64,000 bases of DNA from Dehalococcoidia bacterium (GTDB taxonomy: Bacteria > Chloroflexota > Dehalococcoidia > Lucifugimonadales > Lucifugimonadaceae): NCBI GenBank assembly GCA_965203505.1, contig OZ241880.1:2858206-2922205 (forward strand). Reading direction: 5' to 3'. The position numbers and the translations under genes are program-made. A model generated the notes under the pieces. The model was not told the origin of the DNA, made no database searches, and saw nothing but the letters and a program-made list of their open reading frames with translations. Position 1 is the stretch's first letter; each line of letters opens with the position of its first letter. Of this stretch, positions 7,577-20,441 are shown one piece after another.

Positions 7577-8560
7577 ATGCCTGCCATGACGAAAGAGCAA
7601 CTCGAACACTTTGAGCACTTCGGATTCGTCACAGCCGAGGGCGTGCTCGATCCAGAAAACGTCATCGATCCAGTGATCGAAGAGTACGCTGGCGTCCTCG
7701 ACGACCTAGCTGACGAACTATACGAGGAAGGCAAGATCAGTTCCAAGTACGAGGAACTGGAGTTTGGCGAGCGGGTCACGCAGATTTACGCCGAATCCGA
7801 CGAGGTATACAACGGCCACTTCGACTTTTCTCTGCCGCAAGGCGGCATCACCGAGGAAACACCGTTCTGGGCCGGTCCCGCAGTCTTCAACGCATTGACC
7901 GCGCCGGGCCTATTGGATGCCGTCGAATCTTTCATCGGGCCCGAAATCTACTCCAACCCAGTTCAGCACGTAAGGATCAAAGTTCCGGAAAGCCGCGCGC
8001 CTCGGGACGAAAAGGGTCACGTGAAGTTCGGGATCACACCTTGGCACCAAGACCAAGGCGTCGTGAATCCCGATGCCGACGAGACGCAGATGTTGACGGT
8101 GTGGTTCCCGCTAATGGATGCCGAAGTAGAGAACGGATGTCTGTCCGTAGTGCCAGGATCGCACAAGAACGATCTGCTAACACACTGTCCGGGTTTCGAC
8201 AACGGTTTGCAATCGGGACTTCAAATTCCTGAGACCGAATTCGAAGTCGGCAAGGCGGTGCCGATACCGCTCAAGAAGGGCGACGCACTCTTCATGACCA
8301 AGTTCACCGTGCACTCGTCTTTGCCCAACAACAGCGACCGCATCCGCTGGAGCTTTGACCTCCGCTACAACCCGATCGGGCAATCTACCGGACGCACGAG
8401 TTTCCCCGGCTTCGTCGCCCGCAGCCGCAGCAACCCGCAGAGCGAACTGCACGACCCGGCGATCTGGAACGAATTGTGGACAGACGCGCGGGATTCACTG
8501 GCTAAAGGCGAACAACCGTCGTTCAATCGCTGGGACGGCAGCGAACCGGCCTGCGCCTAA
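7577..8560 (+). CDS. Phytanoyl-CoA dioxygenase (PhyH) family Fe(II)/2-oxoglutarate oxygenase, paralog 1
   Basis: 327 aa. H-x-D in TPWHQDQGV and distal His in FTVHSS. Highly similar to the next two ORFs over the full length. Confidence 0.8.
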   Translation: MPAMTKEQLEHFEHFGFVTAEGVLDPENVIDPVIEEYAGVLDDLADELYEEGKISSKYEELEFGERVTQIYAESDEVYNGHFDFSLPQGGITEETPFWAGPAVFNALTAPGLLDAVESFIGPEIYSNPVQHVRIKVPESRAPRDEKGHVKFGITPWHQDQGVVNPDADETQMLTVWFPLMDAEVENGCLSVVPGSHKNDLLTHCPGFDNGLQSGLQIPETEFEVGKAVPIPLKKGDALFMTKFTVHSSLPNNSDRIRWSFDLRYNPIGQSTGRTSFPGFVARSRSNPQSELHDPAIWNELWTDARDSLAKGEQPSFNRWDGSEPACA

Positions 8561-8562
8561 CC

Positions 8563-9546
8563 ATGCCCGCAATCACCAACGAGCAGCTCGAACATTTCGA
8601 GCACTTCGGCTTCGTAACCGCCGAAAACCTGATCGATCCAGAAACCGTGATCGATCCCGTCATCGACGAATACACCGACGTCCTCGACAACCTCGCCGAC
8701 AAACTCTACGCCGACGGCACGATCAGCTCGAAATACGAAGAGCTGGAGTTCGGAGACCGAGTAACCCAGATCTACGCCGAATCGGGCGAAGTCTACAACG
8801 GCTATTTCGACTTCTCACTGCCGCAGGGTGGCATCAAGGAAGACACGCCATTCTGGGCAGGCCCCGCTGTCTTCGACGCACTCACCGCGCCGGAACTACT
8901 GGACGCCGTGGAGTCGTTCATCGGCCCCGAGATCTACTCCAATCCCGTCCAGCACGTCCGAATAAAAGTGCCGGAAAGTAGGGCACCACGCGACGAAAAA
9001 GGAATGGTGAAATTCGGCGTCACACCTTGGCATCAGGACGCCGGAGTAGTCAACCCCGACGCCGATGAATCGATGATCCTCACGGTCTGGTTCCCGTTGA
9101 TGGACGCCGACGCCGAGAATGGCTGCCTCCAAGTGGTTCCCGGATCACATCGAGAGGATCTGCTGACTCACTGCCCCGGGATGAAGAGCTCATCGCCGTC
9201 CGGATTGCAGATACCAGAGTCCCAGTTCGAGGTCGGCAAAGCGGTCCCGATCCCGTTGAAGAAGGGCGACGTGCTGTTCATGACGAAGTTCACGATCCAC
9301 TCATCGCTACCCAATAAAAGCGATCGCATCCGCTGGAGCTTCGACTTGCGATACAACCCGATCGGACACTCGACCGGCCGCACAAGCTTCCCCGGCTTCG
9401 TCGCTCGCAGCCGCAGCAACCCCAAAAGCGAATTGCAAGATCCAGTCATTTGGAACGAATTGTGGACCGAGGCTCGCGACTCGCTAGCCAAGGGCAATGA
9501 GCCAGCATTCAACCGCTGGGACGGCACCGATCCCGCCTGCGCTTAA
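8563..9546 (+). CDS. PhyH family oxygenase, paralog 2
   Basis: 327 aa, collinear with paralog 1 (MPAITNEQLEHFEHFGFVTAE..., TPWHQDAGV, FTIHSS). Starts 2 nt after the stop of paralog 1. Confidence 0.8.
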   Translation: MPAITNEQLEHFEHFGFVTAENLIDPETVIDPVIDEYTDVLDNLADKLYADGTISSKYEELEFGDRVTQIYAESGEVYNGYFDFSLPQGGIKEDTPFWAGPAVFDALTAPELLDAVESFIGPEIYSNPVQHVRIKVPESRAPRDEKGMVKFGVTPWHQDAGVVNPDADESMILTVWFPLMDADAENGCLQVVPGSHREDLLTHCPGMKSSSPSGLQIPESQFEVGKAVPIPLKKGDVLFMTKFTIHSSLPNKSDRIRWSFDLRYNPIGHSTGRTSFPGFVARSRSNPKSELQDPVIWNELWTEARDSLAKGNEPAFNRWDGTDPACA

Positions 9547-9575
9547 GCGTCTGCATCGAAAGGAACCGTTGAACC

Positions 9576-10559
9576 ATGCCCGCGATGACCAAAGAGCAAC
9601 TCGAACATTTCGAGCACTTCGGGTTTGTTACCGCAGAGGGCGTGATCGACCCCGAGAGAGTGATCGACCCGGTGGTCGACGAATACGCTGGAGTGTTGGA
9701 TAGCTTGGTTGAAGAGCTATATGAGGAAGGGAAGATCAGCTCGAAATACGAGGATCTGGATTTTGGGGAGCGGGTGACGCAGGTCTATGAGGAGTCCGGT
9801 GAGGTGCACCAAGGGTATTTCGACTTCACGCTTCCGCAGAGAGGCGTCACGGAAGATACGCCGTTTTGGGCCGGCCCGGCAGTTTTCAATGCGATGACAT
9901 CGCCAGACCTGTTGGATGCGGTGGAGTCTTTCATCGGACCGGAGATCTACTCGAACCCGGTGCAGCACATTCGCATCAAGGTGCCGGAAAGCCGTTCGCC
10001 TCGCGACCACCTGGGCCGGGTGAAGTTCGGTGTCACGCCGTGGCATCAGGACATGGGGGTCATAACGCCCGACGCTGACGAGTCGTTGATCCTCACCGTC
10101 TGGTATCCACTGATGGATGCAGATGAAGAAAACGGATGCCTGCAAGTCATCCCGGGATCGCACCGCGACGAAGAACTGTTGACGCATTGCCCGGGCGGAA
10201 AGAAAGTACTCGGCAGTTTGCACGTACCAGAAAGCGAGTTCGAAGTAGGGAAGGCAGTCCCGGTACCCGTGAAGAAGGGCGATGCTCTGTTCATGACGAA
10301 GTACACGATCCACTCATCCTTGCCCAACAACAGCGACCGCGTCAGATTCAGCATGGATCTGCGCTACAACCCCATCGGTCAATCCACAGGCCGCACAAGC
10401 TTCCCAGGCTTCGTAGCACGCAGCCGCAGCAACCCCGAAACCGAACTGCACGACCCAGTTGCTTGGAATCAGTCGTGGTTAGACGCGAGGAGTGCGCTGG
10501 CTAAAGGCGAGGAGCCCCCCTTCAACCGCTGGAACAGCGACCATCCGCTTTGTGCGTAG
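9576..10559 (+). CDS. PhyH family oxygenase, paralog 3
   Basis: 327 aa, collinear with paralogs 1 and 2 (TPWHQDMGV, YTIHSS). Confidence 0.8.
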   Translation: MPAMTKEQLEHFEHFGFVTAEGVIDPERVIDPVVDEYAGVLDSLVEELYEEGKISSKYEDLDFGERVTQVYEESGEVHQGYFDFTLPQRGVTEDTPFWAGPAVFNAMTSPDLLDAVESFIGPEIYSNPVQHIRIKVPESRSPRDHLGRVKFGVTPWHQDMGVITPDADESLILTVWYPLMDADEENGCLQVIPGSHRDEELLTHCPGGKKVLGSLHVPESEFEVGKAVPVPVKKGDALFMTKYTIHSSLPNNSDRVRFSMDLRYNPIGQSTGRTSFPGFVARSRSNPETELHDPVAWNQSWLDARSALAKGEEPPFNRWNSDHPLCA

Positions 10560-15686: not shown

Positions 15687-16679
15687 CTAGGCAGAGAAGT
15701 CGAACTCCTGACCAATCCCATTCGCAACCGCTTCTCGATAGACCAACGCCGCACACGAGATGTCCTGAATCGCCAGCCCAACGCTCTTGAAAAGCGTCAC
15801 CTCGTCTTCTGAGGTCCTCCCCGGAGTTACACCGTTGACGACATCTCCCAAGTTTCCGGCAACGTCTGACCACGAATAGTCGCCGTCTTCAACCGGTATC
15901 TGAAGGTCGCCCGCTTCAGCCATGCAAGCTTCGAGCTGGTCGCAGATTATGCGGGATCGCTGGATAGATGCGGTATCGAGTTCACGGACGCCCGGAGCGT
16001 GAGAGCCGATCGCGTTGATGTGAGCGCCCGGTTTCCACCAGTCGGCGCTGACGATCGGGTTCGCGGCCGTCGTGGCGAGCGCGACGATGTCAGACTCTCG
16101 GCAAAGCTGTTCGCCACTATCGGCGAGTTGGACATCCAAACCAGTCTGCTCTACGACCCAATCTGAGAACTCCTGGCGTGAAGCGTCGTCATCCAATGAA
16201 AACGTCAGGATGGTCTCGATATTGCTCGCTTCAGCGATCGCGACGGCCTGTTGCCGCGCCTGCACACCCGCACCTAGGACTCCACCGACTTTGGAATCAG
16301 CCCGCGCCATGTGCCGCGTCGCCACGCCCGACACGGCACCGGTTCGCATCGCGGTCAGGTAACCGCCATCCATCGCCGCCACTACTTCACCGGTCTCATT
16401 GTTTTGCACGAGGATCGTGCCGATAGTGGTCGGGAGTCCGAATTTGCCGGGGTTGTCCTTATAGACCGTGACCGCTTTGGCACCGAGAGCACCACCCGAT
16501 TTCAGGTACGCGGGCATATAGGCGATCCAACCGCCGACGCCAGGGTCGATCATCACGGTACGCGGCGGCATCTCAGCGGTTTCGCTGGCGAGTTCGCCGA
16601 AAGCAGCTTCAACAACGTCGATGGCTTTATCCATCGTCAATAACTGTTGAACGTCGGATCGGTTGAGAAGCAGTGCCAT
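15687..16679 (-). CDS. Ornithine cyclodeaminase/mu-crystallin family protein
   Basis: 330 aa. N-terminus MALLLNRSDVQQLLTMDKAIDVVEAAF and Rossmann segment GVLGAGVQARQQ. RBS aaggaa lies upstream. Confidence 0.8.
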   Translation of the reverse strand: MALLLNRSDVQQLLTMDKAIDVVEAAFGELASETAEMPPRTVMIDPGVGGWIAYMPAYLKSGGALGAKAVTVYKDNPGKFGLPTTIGTILVQNNETGEVVAAMDGGYLTAMRTGAVSGVATRHMARADSKVGGVLGAGVQARQQAVAIAEASNIETILTFSLDDDASRQEFSDWVVEQTGLDVQLADSGEQLCRESDIVALATTAANPIVSADWWKPGAHINAIGSHAPGVRELDTASIQRSRIICDQLEACMAEAGDLQIPVEDGDYSWSDVAGNLGDVVNGVTPGRTSEDEVTLFKSVGLAIQDISCAALVYREAVANGIGQEFDFSA

Positions 16680-16707
16680 CGCAGGTTCCTTGGTTTTAGT
16701 GCTCTAA

Positions 16708-16732
16708 GTTGACCGAGAGAAATCATACAACT
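16708..16732. repeat. 25-bp direct repeat, copy 1 (bounds the darTG cassette)
   Basis: gttgaccgagagaaatcatacaact matches 18175-18199 at 24 of 25 positions. On the minus strand it still encodes ...LYDFSRST-stop, a relic of the amidohydrolase C-terminus. Confidence 0.9.
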
Positions 16733-16826
16733 CTGGGTTAATTACCAAAACCAGCAGTGCAAAGAAAACGATTCAACCGATGAACCCAGTCCTGTTCAGC
16801 GGATTGCCAGAAGTAGGCACAAAGGC

Positions 16827-17348
16827 TTAACGGGGTTCGAAAACGATTACTTCGACTGACGGGAGTCGGTCAAAAGCCGATTCGATCTTCTGTTTCACAT
16901 CCGTCCAACGGAGCCCACCGAGACCGCACCCTAGCGGTGGGACCGCAATTGAGTGGATGTCTCGCGATTCAATCTCTGCTGTTAAAGACTCCAAGCCTGT
17001 TTCGATGTATTCAATTTTGCTGGGCTGGCGCCAGTGGTTTTTCGTAGGAAAATTAACGATGAAACGCGGAGATTCGCAACTTGGGCTTCCGTCAACAAAC
17101 ATATTGAGTTGAGTAGCATCGGATCCTTCGTCGAAATCCCCGTTTCGTTCGACGGCGGTGATGAAAACACGACCGGTACGAACATCGCCTTTATCGCAGG
17201 CGTCGGCGTATAGCTTGAAGTTGTCAGGAAACCGTTTTTTGAATTCGAGAGCGATCCCTTTGCCCATGATGCCTTTGCAATTGACTGTGTTGACTAACGC
17301 ATCCACTTGTTCGTCGAGAAGATTTCCCGAATTCCTGAATTCGATCAT
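16827..17348 (-). CDS. darG: Macrodomain protein, DarG-like antitoxin (macrodomain only)
   Basis: 173 aa. VDALVNTVNCKGIMGKGIALEFKKRFP is a macrodomain ADP-ribose-binding signature. It lies directly downstream of darT. Confidence 0.8.
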   Translation of the reverse strand: MIEFRNSGNLLDEQVDALVNTVNCKGIMGKGIALEFKKRFPDNFKLYADACDKGDVRTGRVFITAVERNGDFDEGSDATQLNMFVDGSPSCESPRFIVNFPTKNHWRQPSKIEYIETGLESLTAEIESRDIHSIAVPPLGCGLGGLRWTDVKQKIESAFDRLPSVEVIVFEPR

Positions 17349-17363
17349 TGGCTGGCCTCACTC

Positions 17364-18029
17364 CTAATAGTACCAGTCGGGCCGAACGACCACCGACGGA
17401 CGGTACTGCGCTTGTTCTGTCATCGACATGACTTGCCGTTGCATCTCTTCAGAAATGACGCCAATCCTGAGGATCCATGTCCACGGGAATCTGCCTCCAA
17501 GGAGGAACTCCGCTTGTTTTACTTCGCTTTTTTCGTTGTAGTTCCGTTCCCAGTCGTTGGAAGTAACCGTGAGCCAATCGATCTCGTTGATGTCAGCGAG
17601 GTTTTTGTAGTCCTCGAACCTGTTCGATGCGGCACTGGCGTTTGTGAACGCCCAGCGGATCCGGTTTCGGTTGGCGAATCTCACGACGTCGTGCAGGTCT
17701 GCTTCGAGGTGGGCGATGTTTTCTTGTCCACCGCGATAAGGGAGATCAGGGCGGGTCCCATGTATGTTTCGATGGATTGCTCGTAGCATGACGGATCGTG
17801 GACAGAAGTAGAACGGAACACATTGCCCGACAGTCAGGTCTGGATGACTATGTAGACGGCGTCGCATTCTTCGTGACTTAATGTGGGTCATGCCAATGGA
17901 TGTACCTGCGTTGGTTGCTAGCGATACTTCGGAATCGGGGAAAATCCAGCCGTCTTTGATGATCGAAGCAAGGGTGTTCATATGGACGATGTGATAGATC
18001 TTTGGCTTGTCGGGAATCATGACATGCAA
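17364..18029 (-). CDS. darT: DarT (DUF4433) ssDNA ADP-ribosyltransferase toxin
   Basis: 221 aa. N-terminal KIYHIVHMNTLASIIKDGWI and C-terminal KQAEFLLGGRFPWTWILRIGV (catalytic-Glu-type AEFL motif). Start is TTG at 18029 or ATG at 18020. Confidence 0.8.
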   Translation of the reverse strand: MHVMIPDKPKIYHIVHMNTLASIIKDGWIFPDSEVSLATNAGTSIGMTHIKSRRMRRRLHSHPDLTVGQCVPFYFCPRSVMLRAIHRNIHGTRPDLPYRGGQENIAHLEADLHDVVRFANRNRIRWAFTNASAASNRFEDYKNLADINEIDWLTVTSNDWERNYNEKSEVKQAEFLLGGRFPWTWILRIGVISEEMQRQVMSMTEQAQYRPSVVVRPDWYY

Positions 18030-18158
18030 ATTGATCGCAGGCGATCCTTTCGAATCGGTTTAGTTGGATGGCATCGGATACGCTGAAATTCTCTCGATAT
18101 GCCTGATCATTCGAGGGTTTATTTGCATTTCAAGATGGTCCTAAGTGATAACGCCGAT

Positions 18159-19040
18159 TTATGGAGGCGATTGTGTTGACCGAGAGAAATCATATAACTG
18201 GCCGGCCACTTCTGAGATCATCCGTTGCTTGAAAGGTGTCAAACTAGAGGCGCGCAAGTGGTCGAGAGCGCGTTTTTGGCTCAGCAACGGAAAGTCGCTC
18301 GCGAAGAACAACCGTGATCCGCCCACAATCTCATCTACCGTCGCGTAGACCTCGGGAGAATACAGAAACGGCGACGCAGCGGAGTCGAAAGACACGTTTT
18401 CCAACGCTTCATCGATCTCCGGCATGTGCTTGTAGAAGGGCAGACCGCCCCCGAAGTGGGAGAAGATGAACGCGTTGTCTGGATATCTTTTTGCAAGAAG
18501 CACGAGACGGTCTGGAGTCATCGTCCCCTTGCCATCGTAAGTGTGTCCGAGAGGTTCAGATCCATGGACCACGACGAACAAAATCCGACTGCGTCGCGCC
18601 ACGAAATCCCGCACAACCGCCATGACGTCGTCGAGACGGTCGTATGGTGGCTCGACCCAACCCTGTGTATCCGCATGAAGTTCGCCGATGCCGCGTGCAC
18701 CCGCTTTGAAGCATCTCTCAACTTCTACGGGCGCTGCGTCGCCGGGCCACAGCGGATTCACGCTGCATAGTGGGATCAAAATACCCGGGAAGCGGGTTGC
18801 ACACTCGATCAGATAGTCATTCGAGCGTCGGGCGAGTTCTTGGTCGGTCCAGCCGAATCCTGCGATTACCGATCTTTCGACACCGGAACGATCCATCTCA
18901 TCAAGAAGATGTTCGACCTGTACGATGCGCGCCTTAGGGTTGGAGAACAGTGCCGCGAACGTCCGGTCGCGGGCAAGGGCATCGTCGCGATAGTCGGAGA
19001 AATAAGGCGGAAGGATGTGTGTCAACGCATCGGTAATCAT
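18159..19040 (-). CDS. Amidohydrolase-2 (ACMSD-like TIM-barrel metal hydrolase) family protein
   Basis: 293 aa, with MITDALTHILPPYF at the N-terminus and the layout typical of the family. Its last 4 codons derive from the cassette side of the repeat. Confidence 0.7.
   Translation of the reverse strand: MITDALTHILPPYFSDYRDDALARDRTFAALFSNPKARIVQVEHLLDEMDRSGVERSVIAGFGWTDQELARRSNDYLIECATRFPGILIPLCSVNPLWPGDAAPVEVERCFKAGARGIGELHADTQGWVEPPYDRLDDVMAVVRDFVARRSRILFVVVHGSEPLGHTYDGKGTMTPDRLVLLAKRYPDNAFIFSHFGGGLPFYKHMPEIDEALENVSFDSAASPFLYSPEVYATVDEIVGGSRLFFASDFPLLSQKRALDHLRASSLTPFKQRMISEVAGQLYDFSRSTQSPP
18175..18199. repeat. 25-bp direct repeat, copy 2 (inside the 3' end of the amidohydrolase gene)
   Basis: gttgaccgagagaaatcatataact. 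On the minus strand it encodes QLYDFSRST within the extant C-terminus ...QLYDFSRSTQSPP-stop. Confidence 0.9.
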
Positions 19041-19139: not shown

Positions 19140-20441
19140 TCAAACCAATGCCACGTCTCGCAGTTTGATCACGTTGCCAGATTGCATGACCGTCGATGCC
19201 TGGTCCAAATCGCGGATGTTTACGGCCGGATCACCATCGAATGCGGCCAGATCGGCAACCTTCCCGGGGCTGATCGATCCCACTTCATCGTCGACTCCGA
19301 GCGCCTCTGCGGTATCCGATGTCGCCATCCTCAACGCGCTCCAGTTATCCCATCCGAGGTTTTCTACATACGACCAAGCGTTAGCCGCCGAGCGGTCGTG
19401 AGTGCCGTGCGGCATCCCCATGTCCAATCCGTTGATGAAACGGACGCCTTCATCGTGCATGAGGTTTAGTGTTTCGTAGTGGTCATTGTCGGTGACGTCC
19501 GATGCCGCAACCGACCAGTGGACAGCACGCGGCGGCGCCTCGCCCCTAGCCGATACCTCATGCCCGAGCATCCCATGACCGATTGTCGGATCGACCCACT
19601 GCCCCTGATCCGCCATTCGTTTCGTTGTGTCGATGTCGAAATCCAACCCCTTCGCCGGGTCTTGAGAGTACCAACGTGCGTGGACGAGGTTATGGACGTT
19701 TGCTTCCACGCAATTCTTCACACCATCTGCCGACAAACAATGAGCGGCCACCGTGATCCCGGATCGCGCCGCTTCGCGAACTGCCACAGCGAGCGCCTCG
19801 GCGGAATATTGCGGCAATCGAGGGTTGGCTGTAGGGGTGAACATCCCACCGGTTGACATGATTTTGATCGCGTCCGCGCCTAGTCTGACTTGGTTGCGGA
19901 CCGCCTTCGCGACATCGTCCACGGTGTCGGCTTGAGTGCCGAAAAACCAGCAGTGTCCCGCGGTGATCGTGATTGGTGTGCCTGTCACCAGAAGGCGCGG
20001 CCCGGGCATGGCACCGTCCTTGATCGCTTGCTTTATCCCAAATGCCACCTCGTTGCGTGAACCGATATCTCGGACCGTCGTCGTGCCAGCTAAAACGGCT
20101 TTCCGCATCGCGGACACCGCGCGCATCGTCAATCGTTGGATATCGTCACGCTCCTCCAACGCCAGTTTCTGTGCATCCGCCGTTGCGCTGCAATGCATGT
20201 GGCAATGGGCATCAACAAGGCCGGGCATCAACGAAACATCGCCCAAACTCACGACCTCAGAAGTCTCGCTGATGTCCGATGGCAAGTCCAAAAACCGCAC
20301 CACGGCGTCGATCTTGTCGTTGACGATGCGAACCGCGCCGTCGCGAAGCCAACCCGACATATCGGCGTTGGCGACGCGGTCAGCGGTTACGTATTTGGTT
20401 ACGCGGGTCAATACGTTACCTGAACCTTCAAGCGCCCTCAA
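19140..20441 (-). CDS. Amidohydrolase family protein (imidazolonepropionase/Xaa-Pro dipeptidase-like)
   Basis: 433 aa. Metal-binding MPGLVDAHCHMH motif and a later HC..AD segment. Confidence 0.75.
   Translation of the reverse strand: MRALEGSGNVLTRVTKYVTADRVANADMSGWLRDGAVRIVNDKIDAVVRFLDLPSDISETSEVVSLGDVSLMPGLVDAHCHMHCSATADAQKLALEERDDIQRLTMRAVSAMRKAVLAGTTTVRDIGSRNEVAFGIKQAIKDGAMPGPRLLVTGTPITITAGHCWFFGTQADTVDDVAKAVRNQVRLGADAIKIMSTGGMFTPTANPRLPQYSAEALAVAVREAARSGITVAAHCLSADGVKNCVEANVHNLVHARWYSQDPAKGLDFDIDTTKRMADQGQWVDPTIGHGMLGHEVSARGEAPPRAVHWSVAASDVTDNDHYETLNLMHDEGVRFINGLDMGMPHGTHDRSAANAWSYVENLGWDNWSALRMATSDTAEALGVDDEVGSISPGKVADLAAFDGDPAVNIRDLDQASTVMQSGNVIKLRDVALV

Follow-up and report, generated by a model that had tools for sequence, protein, structure and literature searches.

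A 64,000-nucleotide (nt) stretch of the genome of a Dehalococcoidia bacterium (contig OZ241880.1, positions 2,858,206 to 2,922,205; hereafter the window) carries a two-gene unit, darT-darG, between an amidohydrolase gene (amido2) and a gene of the ornithine cyclodeaminase/mu-crystallin family (ocd), with one copy of a 25-nt direct repeat on either side. That this unit is an insertion at the amido2-ocd junction is strongly supported: relatives hold the empty site, and the unit has spread horizontally between species. We put at roughly 62% the probability that it is a recombinase-less DarTG2-type cassette of foreign origin, integrated by recombination across the 25-nt conserved end of the amido2 gene.

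Insertion at the amido2-ocd junction

An earlier reading of the sequence by a model (the original prediction) had pointed to the repeat pair, and we find it as described. The repeat, GTTGACCGAGAGAAATCATA[C/T]AACT on the plus strand, occupies 16708-16732 and 18175-18199, the two copies agreeing at 24 of 25 positions. A search of the window at up to three mismatches returned these two matches only, and none in 100 dinucleotide-preserving shuffles. The figure of 1467, previously given as the length of the DNA between the copies, is their start-to-start spacing; the unique DNA amounts to 1442 base pairs (bp; 16733-18174) and does, as proposed, carry only darT and a macrodomain-only darG. The features of the locus are as follows.

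19140-20441, minus strand: amido1, an amidohydrolase gene (Pfam PF01979)
18159-19040, minus strand: amido2, 293 amino acids (aa), Amidohydrolase_2 (Pfam PF04909)
18175-18199, minus strand: repeat copy U (attL-like), in the amido2 coding sequence, encoding (Q)LYDFSRS(T)
18159-18173, minus strand: last four codons and stop of amido2, QSPP-TAA, from the cassette
18030-18174, minus strand: left non-coding cassette end, comprising the surrogate tail with its stop and, after it, ~130 nt upstream of darT
17364-18020, minus strand: darT (PF14487), 218 aa from the likely ATG at 18020; the open reading frame (ORF) extends back to a TTG at 18029
16827-17348, minus strand: darG, macrodomain only, 173 aa (Macro, PF01661, E = 8e-21)
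16733-16826, minus strand: right non-coding cassette end, 94 nt, 93.6% identical to that of a second carrier, contig L030
16704-16732, minus strand: repeat copy D (attR-like, 16708-16732) with a relic Thr codon and TAG stop, just upstream of ocd
15687-16679, minus strand: ocd (PF02423, 8.9e-77)

In copy U the codons for LYDFSRST run on into QSPP-TAA, while copy D reads ELYDFSRST-TAG, both in agreement with what had been claimed. The relic stop (16704-16706) is separated from the ocd ATG (16677-16679) by 24 nt containing an AAGGAA ribosome-binding site, a spacer that is the same at empty sites. This order of elements stands, but the distance of 31 nt originally attached to it does not, the end of the repeat lying 28 nt from the ATG. 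The GC content of the cassette is 0.500 against 0.563 for the window, placing it in the lowest 0.2% of same-size windows. The cassette contains no ORF for a recombinase, again as first read, or for a transposase, and no terminal inverted repeats were detected within it. Folding of the right cassette end (z = -0.08) and of the other end (z = +0.42, unremarkable) revealed no attC-like or terminator structure.

Scanning for relatives at one genome per species yielded 29 related loci, all from SAR202-like Dehalococcoidia metagenome-assembled genomes. At 24 of them the amido2 stop is followed directly by ocd after 21-52 nt, and a tblastn search found the darT or macro gene at none of the 29. The closest empty sites read ...GGCCAATTGTATGATTTCTCTCGGTCAACTTAG, then 24 nt with AGGAA, then ATGGCA, resembling copy D of the window together with its right flank. 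The closest relative, L001, is collinear with window positions 27052-11424 over ~15 kilobases (kb), the sole large indel being the 1467-bp unit; a 22-nt piece of L001 can be aligned with U as well as with D. The amido2 proteins of the eight closest clusters (83-92% identity) have a length of 287-289 aa, and all end in ...YDFSRST. The 25-mer occurs once per related locus, and no copy of its core was found in viral contigs. The insertion had been said to fall if every relative carried the same arrangement or if the repeat proved a common motif at unrelated loci; empty sites exist and the 25-mer is not dispersed. Exact-protein look-ups of the amido2, ocd and DarG of the window matched no record.

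Horizontal spread between divergent species

Among 5.8 billion proteins the only close DarT homologue (95% identity) is encoded on contig L030, the next-best reaching no more than 55%. Cluster-mates of the L030 protein led to contig L111 and to a short identical contig, L112. In both L030 and L111 the gene order is amido2 (293 aa)-darT-darG (173 aa)-ocd, at the same site as in the window. A metagenome scan with DarT added no carrier, only distant relatives of 52% identity or less; a scan of viral contigs gave no close match, with two at 49-50% identity. Given this and the lack of the 25-mer core in viral contigs, nothing points to a phage vector. The cassette is probably of foreign origin, as its low GC content and the distance to the next DarT homologues indicate.

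Comparison of the window with L030 gave the following nucleotide identities and synonymous divergences (dS).

darT: 96.1% identity, dS 0.11
darG: 94.8% identity, dS 0.15
cassette non-coding ends: 89-94% identity, no dS given
amido2: 76.5% identity, dS 1.78
amido1: 85.8% identity, dS 0.67
ocd: 86.3% identity, dS 0.72

Across the two other carriers the flanks differ from the window at 14-24% of nucleotides and the cassette at 4-9%, with dS of 0.5-1.8 versus 0.1-0.3. The L111 cassette is ~91% identical to those of the window and L030, most of its flanks 77-82%. The flanking genes of L030 are 92-97% identical in nucleotides to those of L004, an empty-site genome. Being much less diverged than its flanks, the cassette is far younger in its carriers than the split between the carrier genomes; it spreads horizontally between species. 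No fewer than two divergent species of Dehalococcoidia, and probably three, have received it at one site. Both genes are under purifying selection, with ratios of non-synonymous to synonymous divergence of 0.13-0.22 across the three carriers (darT 0.22 against L030, darG 0.13-0.18).

The repeats as boundaries of the transferred unit

A base-by-base alignment of the window with L030 shows a high-identity tract which begins right after U and stops at D plus TTAG; it is in this comparison that the left boundary at U is seen. The right boundary is visible in all three carriers. The 24-nt spacers to the right of D belong to three native types (window-type, L004-type and L001-type), and the right-hand crossover therefore lies inside D plus TTAG, a span of no more than 29 nt, in each carrier. 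Another 24 nt on, the ocd gene sets in with 27 identical nt, and its overall identity amounts to 86-89%; that the crossover fell within D plus TTAG despite this adjacent conserved gene disfavours an exchange via long flanking homology. On these alignments the transferred unit comprises the cassette, one 25-mer and the 16 nt after U, which supply four codons and a stop.

The two repeat copies behave differently. D is nearly constant, reading [A/C]GTTGTATGATTTCTCTCGGTCAAC in all three carriers, whereas U is lineage-specific: AGTTATATGATTTCTCTCGGTCAAC in the window, AGATATACGATTTCTCTCGATCAAC in L030 and AAATTTATGATTTCTCCCGGTCACC in L111, the differences between carriers lying at synonymous sites. 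Mismatches between U and D rise from 1/25 in the window to 4/25 in L030 and 5/25 in L111. This contrast argues for an attL/attR-like architecture and not for a target-site duplication, under which U, D and the local sequence would all have started out identical upon insertion. The locus has the further marks of attachment-site recombination: direct repeats of which one belongs to the 3′ end of an intact target gene, empty attB-like sites (the 24/29 loci above) and use of the same site in three carriers with divergent flanks. The original prediction had singled out the 25 bp as too long for a transposon target duplication. A target duplication it is not, but the puzzle disappears, because D travels with the cassette as one of an attL/attR-type pair; on that reading, the repeat length marks the end of the conserved LYDFSRS coding block rather than the width of a staggered cut.

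Conservation of this gene end was assessed across 21 empty-site genomes whose amido2 proteins are 64-94% identical. The longest invariant nucleotide run of amido2 is the 9-nt TATGATTTC, contained in D, the next-longest being 5 nt; tolerating a single deviant sequence changes it to TTGTATGATTTC. A permutation test puts the probability of four near-invariant codons in a row at ~0.012. In the carriers U has lost this invariance, the first codon being TTA, ATA or ATT and the second once TAC, and D keeps it, which may reflect either constraint in front of ocd or the youth of D as part of the cassette. As a guess, TATGAT within the 25-mer could be a -10-like element of a candidate ocd promoter; a consensus scan did not call it. 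The ultra-conserved patch is what makes one landing site available across species. Among the 21 genomes, L004 alone has ATA for the TTG Leu codon and in this matches the U copy of L030, a hint that L004 may have lost the cassette by recombination between U and D.

The cassette also brings a surrogate gene end. The tails in the carriers, QSPP*, KSPP* or KSPL*, have the same length as natural tails of the 293-aa amido2 class, such as PKNQT* and PNTRP*. In register, the first 22 nt of the cassette match 293-aa-type tails at 9-13 of 22 positions, where the null distribution has its mean at 5.6 and its 99.9th percentile at 13. Judging from this resemblance, the QSPP tail was probably captured from a naturally longer, 293-aa amido2 allele class. 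The amido2 C-terminus is itself naturally variable across L001-L021, with classes of 289, 292, 293 and 296 aa, and the 289-aa class seems to have been derived from the 292-aa class by a CAG-to-TAG change.

DarT and a macrodomain-only DarG

The cassette DarT matches PF14487 with E = 1.4e-53 and 182.1 bits (Pfam cutoff 22.5), the NCBIfam model toxin_DarT (NF048013) with 218.9 bits (cutoff 150) and the PADLOC DarT model at 2e-59. It retains the glutamate of the ADP-ribosylating turn-turn (ARTT) motif, E160 of Thermus DarT, and the motifs YHIxH and VPFYFCPRS. Against the Thermus DarT structure 7omv (1.3e-27), the Glu of KQAEFLL stands where the crystallised chain, which we take to be the E160A mutant, has an alanine. 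These conserved motifs make DarT a likely thymidine ADP-ribosyltransferase toxin acting on single-stranded DNA (ssDNA). Upstream of darT a promoter and terminator scan gave a sigma-70-like match, TTGAAA-16-AATGAT at 18133-18106, not above chance. A 16-nt inverted repeat (18016-18031 and 18121-18136, 88% complementary, with ATTTGCAT/ATGCAAAT) flanks the darT upstream region and overlaps the darT start; it could be an operator or chance.

The darG gene follows in the same orientation, its start lying 15 nt after the darT stop (17364 to 17348) across a spacer with AGGAG, so that the two form an adjacent operon. DarG covers only positions 1-145 of 329 in the PADLOC DarG model and 1-148 of 338 in that of NCBIfam, where its 234.8 bits fall below the equivalog cutoff of 250. 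It aligns with the macrodomain structures of Thermus aquaticus (5m31, 1.6e-47) and Mycobacterium tuberculosis (5m3i, 7e-45) as a TARG1-like macrodomain, with NFPTKNHW opposite NFPTKKHW. The catalytic lysine, K80 of T. aquaticus DarG (PMC5179494), is present. A 28-residue acidic insertion (residues 64-91; six D/E, one K/R) interrupts the macrodomain. No match to the C-terminal, DarT-binding (type II) domain of DarG was found after the macro gene or across the 64-kb window. As a candidate remnant downstream of darG, only a 12-aa match (residues 195-206, E~1) in another frame emerged, and it is not credible.

Metagenomic darT loci whose partner is complete number 63, and in every one DarG measures 345-426 aa; the macro-only DarG is thus a minority form. 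The nearest relatives of the window protein are mostly stand-alone proteins of 147-190 aa. Of six such contexts inspected, three lie directly downstream of DarT (L113, L118 and L119; proteins of 173-190 aa, 49-51% identical to the window DarG), one is a split DarG (L117) and two are orphans (L114 and L120). The 173-aa DarG is therefore unusual, as had been supposed, but not unique. No flanking direct repeats were detected at L113, L118 or L119, and the literature searched held no description of a natural macro-only DarG subclass.

Several of these relatives have peculiarities of their own. At L113 (2860-4567), in a 6x long-read assembly, a 363-aa DarT with a 148-aa C-terminal extension precedes a 188-aa macro-only DarG; the extension matches the DarG C-terminal segment only weakly (E = 0.05), and either a rearrangement of domains or an assembly error could account for it. 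At L117 (3001-4055) a 170-aa macro ORF overlaps the start of a 181-aa ORF with 37-43% identity to C-terminal domains of DarG; a PemK/ribbon-helix-helix pair lies upstream, and there is no DarT next to the two ORFs. At L119 (2323-3522) darT and a 173-aa macro gene sit between glycosyltransferase genes, with DarT in two frames, which could signify a pseudogene or long-read frameshifts.

Truncated DarG proteins of T. aquaticus and enteropathogenic Escherichia coli (EPEC) show that the macrodomain alone removes ADP-ribose from DNA and rescues cells, the C-terminal domain adding sequestration of DarT (PMC5179494, PMC7003065). By analogy, and because the sequestering domain is absent, the 173-aa DarG is likely to neutralise DarT purely enzymatically, as a type IV antitoxin. 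As a weaker possibility, the acidic loop may substitute for the missing ssDNA-mimicking C-terminal domain. Anti-phage activity of the cassette is plausible, again by analogy with related systems.

How the cassette may have been integrated

In the mechanism that we favour, the mobile unit would consist of the cassette and one copy of the 25-mer, followed by the surrogate four-codon tail and stop. Its att-like site would recombine with the chromosomal 25-mer, that is, with the conserved last codons of amido2. The attL product would be copy U, where amido2 stays intact and gains the cassette tail; the attR product would be copy D, where the old gene end, its stop, the spacer and the ribosome-binding site remain before ocd. 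Both host genes would thereby be left undamaged. A circular intermediate would carry the junction ...GGTAATTAACCCAG-AGTTGTATGATTTCTCTCGGTCAAC-ACAATCGCCTCCATAA..., and recombination of U with D can probably remove the cassette again. Once in place, DarT would ADP-ribosylate thymidines in ssDNA and the 173-aa DarG would reverse this enzymatically. Two routes remain for such an integration: a circle, or a U-cassette-D fragment, could enter via host homologous recombination over ~25 nt of identity, or a tyrosine or serine recombinase could be supplied in trans.

The second route shades into an explanation of a different kind, in which the cassette is a decayed site-specific element, CIME-like (after the integrase-less cis-mobilizable elements) or satellite-like, and the 25-mers are the attL and attR cores for a trans-acting tyrosine or serine integrase encoded elsewhere. 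The architecture is that of a textbook case, since integrase-driven elements are known to form repeats of 8-60 bp where they enter the 3′ end of a protein gene without disrupting it, and integrase-less CIMEs are known too (PMC5704250); moreover, three species share one and the same insertion point, and all crossovers map within the 25-mer. However, no integrase occurs in the cassette or in the collinear flanks, and in the 29 related genomes the site is free of any other element, with or without an integrase, which weakens the idea. In L030 and L111, furthermore, U has drifted from D at 4-5 of 25 positions, so the att pair is not maintained there. We regard this explanation as rather unlikely. 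Alternatively, a single ancient insertion may have spread by homologous recombination in the flanking core genes, in the manner of many defence islets, leaving the repeat as the scar of one illegitimate founding event. Mosaic flanks speak for such exchanges: the amido2 of L111 is 94% identical to that of L030, its amido1 82%, and its spacer is L001-like, while between L030 and L111 the amido2 dS (0.26) is similar to the cassette dS (0.29). Crossovers in the arms should, however, drag along donor flanks of variable length, whereas both tract ends lie at the repeats in the window-L030 comparison and the right end lies at D in all three carriers. This renders a history of flanking exchange improbable.

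Direct repeats around a short, promoter-poor two-gene unit might equally call to mind a transposon-like element whose insertion duplicated 25 bp of target, or an integron-type gene cassette, and to these we give almost no credence. A transposon is contradicted by the absence of terminal inverted repeats and of a transposase, by a near-constant D beside a lineage-specific U, and by the threefold use of the site. For the integron cassette there is no attC-like fold (z = -0.08) and no integron integrase in the collinear neighbourhood, which consists of housekeeping genes.

Several points weigh against the integration of a mobile cassette across the 25-nt gene end. Neither a circular form nor an excision junction nor a recombinase was seen. 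At the 29 related loci this site carries no other element, so that there is no independent sign of a recognised attB. With their similar amido2 alleles, L030 and L111 may represent one event followed by co-inheritance or co-transfer, which would reduce the clearly independent placements to two. The near-identity of D could partly stem from host constraint on an element upstream of ocd. Finally, the hint of cassette loss in L004 rests on one codon.

It is tempting to speculate that the cassette exemplifies a class of 'homing mini-cassettes', in which recombinase-less defence or toxin-antitoxin (TA) cargo would carry a short, ultra-conserved copy of a host gene end as its only mobility determinant. 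Such units would circularise and re-integrate across species via host recombination, with the target gene and its downstream neighbour unharmed. We offer this generalisation tentatively and think it doubtful.

Relation to known systems

With the DarTG systems of T. aquaticus, M. tuberculosis and EPEC, the cassette shares the darT-then-darG order, the short spacer and the catalytic Glu and Lys; unlike them, its DarG lacks the ~190-aa C-terminal domain that binds and occludes DarT, and has the acidic insertion. The pairs at L113, L118 and L119 likewise have a macro-only DarG after DarT, that of L113 with its macrodomain interrupted by an insertion at the corresponding position, but they reside in unrelated hosts and loci and, unlike the cassette, have no detected flanking repeats. 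Site-specific elements at gene 3′ ends create repeats of 8-60 bp, one of them with the gene end, and their integrase-less derivatives that keep attL and attR are the CIMEs (PMC5704250). The cassette resembles these integrative elements and CIMEs in its repeats from a target-gene 3′ end, its replacement gene end, its empty attB-like sites and its lack of integration genes, and differs from them in its size of 1.4 kb with two cargo genes and in the absence of a helper or parent at the site in 29 genomes. As with defence islets and hotspot cargo that strains exchange through homologous recombination in the flanks, we see presence/absence polymorphism of a defence/TA module in a conserved core-gene neighbourhood, with cargo less diverged than the flanks; in contrast to them, the cassette tract ends at a 25-nt repeat on both sides and not within the flanking genes. 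As its components, DarTG and att-like repeats at a gene 3′ end, are already known, the cassette is an instructive variant and not a new kind of system.

How small defence/TA modules move between genomes without an obvious mobile element is a recurring question, and the locus provides natural material for it: a filled site in three species and its empty counterpart in the genomes closest to them, L004 as a possible revertant, and unit boundaries at the nucleotide level. With filled and empty sites and legible boundaries to hand, the route of transfer is directly testable. The naturally macro-only DarG, under purifying selection in uncultivated SAR202-like Dehalococcoidia, would represent DarTG with a purely type IV antitoxin, a natural case in which to work out the contribution of the C-terminal sequestering domain.

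Variation around the cassette site

The region downstream of ocd is also variable. A variable segment of ~5 kb lies between ocd and a gene for a 181-aa membrane protein in L002, L003, L004, L010, L014, L018 and L030 (for example L030:12432-17733) and is absent from the window, L001, L013 and L005. It looks like a second accessory-gene hotspot beside the cassette site.

In two relatives the 3′ end of ocd is partly duplicated beside an insertion. The copies lie at 9682-9887 and 10888-11093 in L003 (206 nt, 89% identity), and at 9676-9911 and 9938-10173 in L012 (236 nt, 85% identity). Those of L003 bracket ~1 kb of hairpin repeats, resembling repetitive extragenic palindromic (REP) sequences, beyond which lies an island with a 1351-aa type-IIG-like methylase/nuclease. 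In both genomes a gene end is doubled at an insertion, the same architecture as that of the cassette, one gene over. These duplications hint that the same trick may be in use at neighbouring genes of this clade.

Further along the window, three tandem paralogous ORFs of 327 aa each occupy 7577-10559 on the plus strand, and L001 and L013 match them at several offsets.

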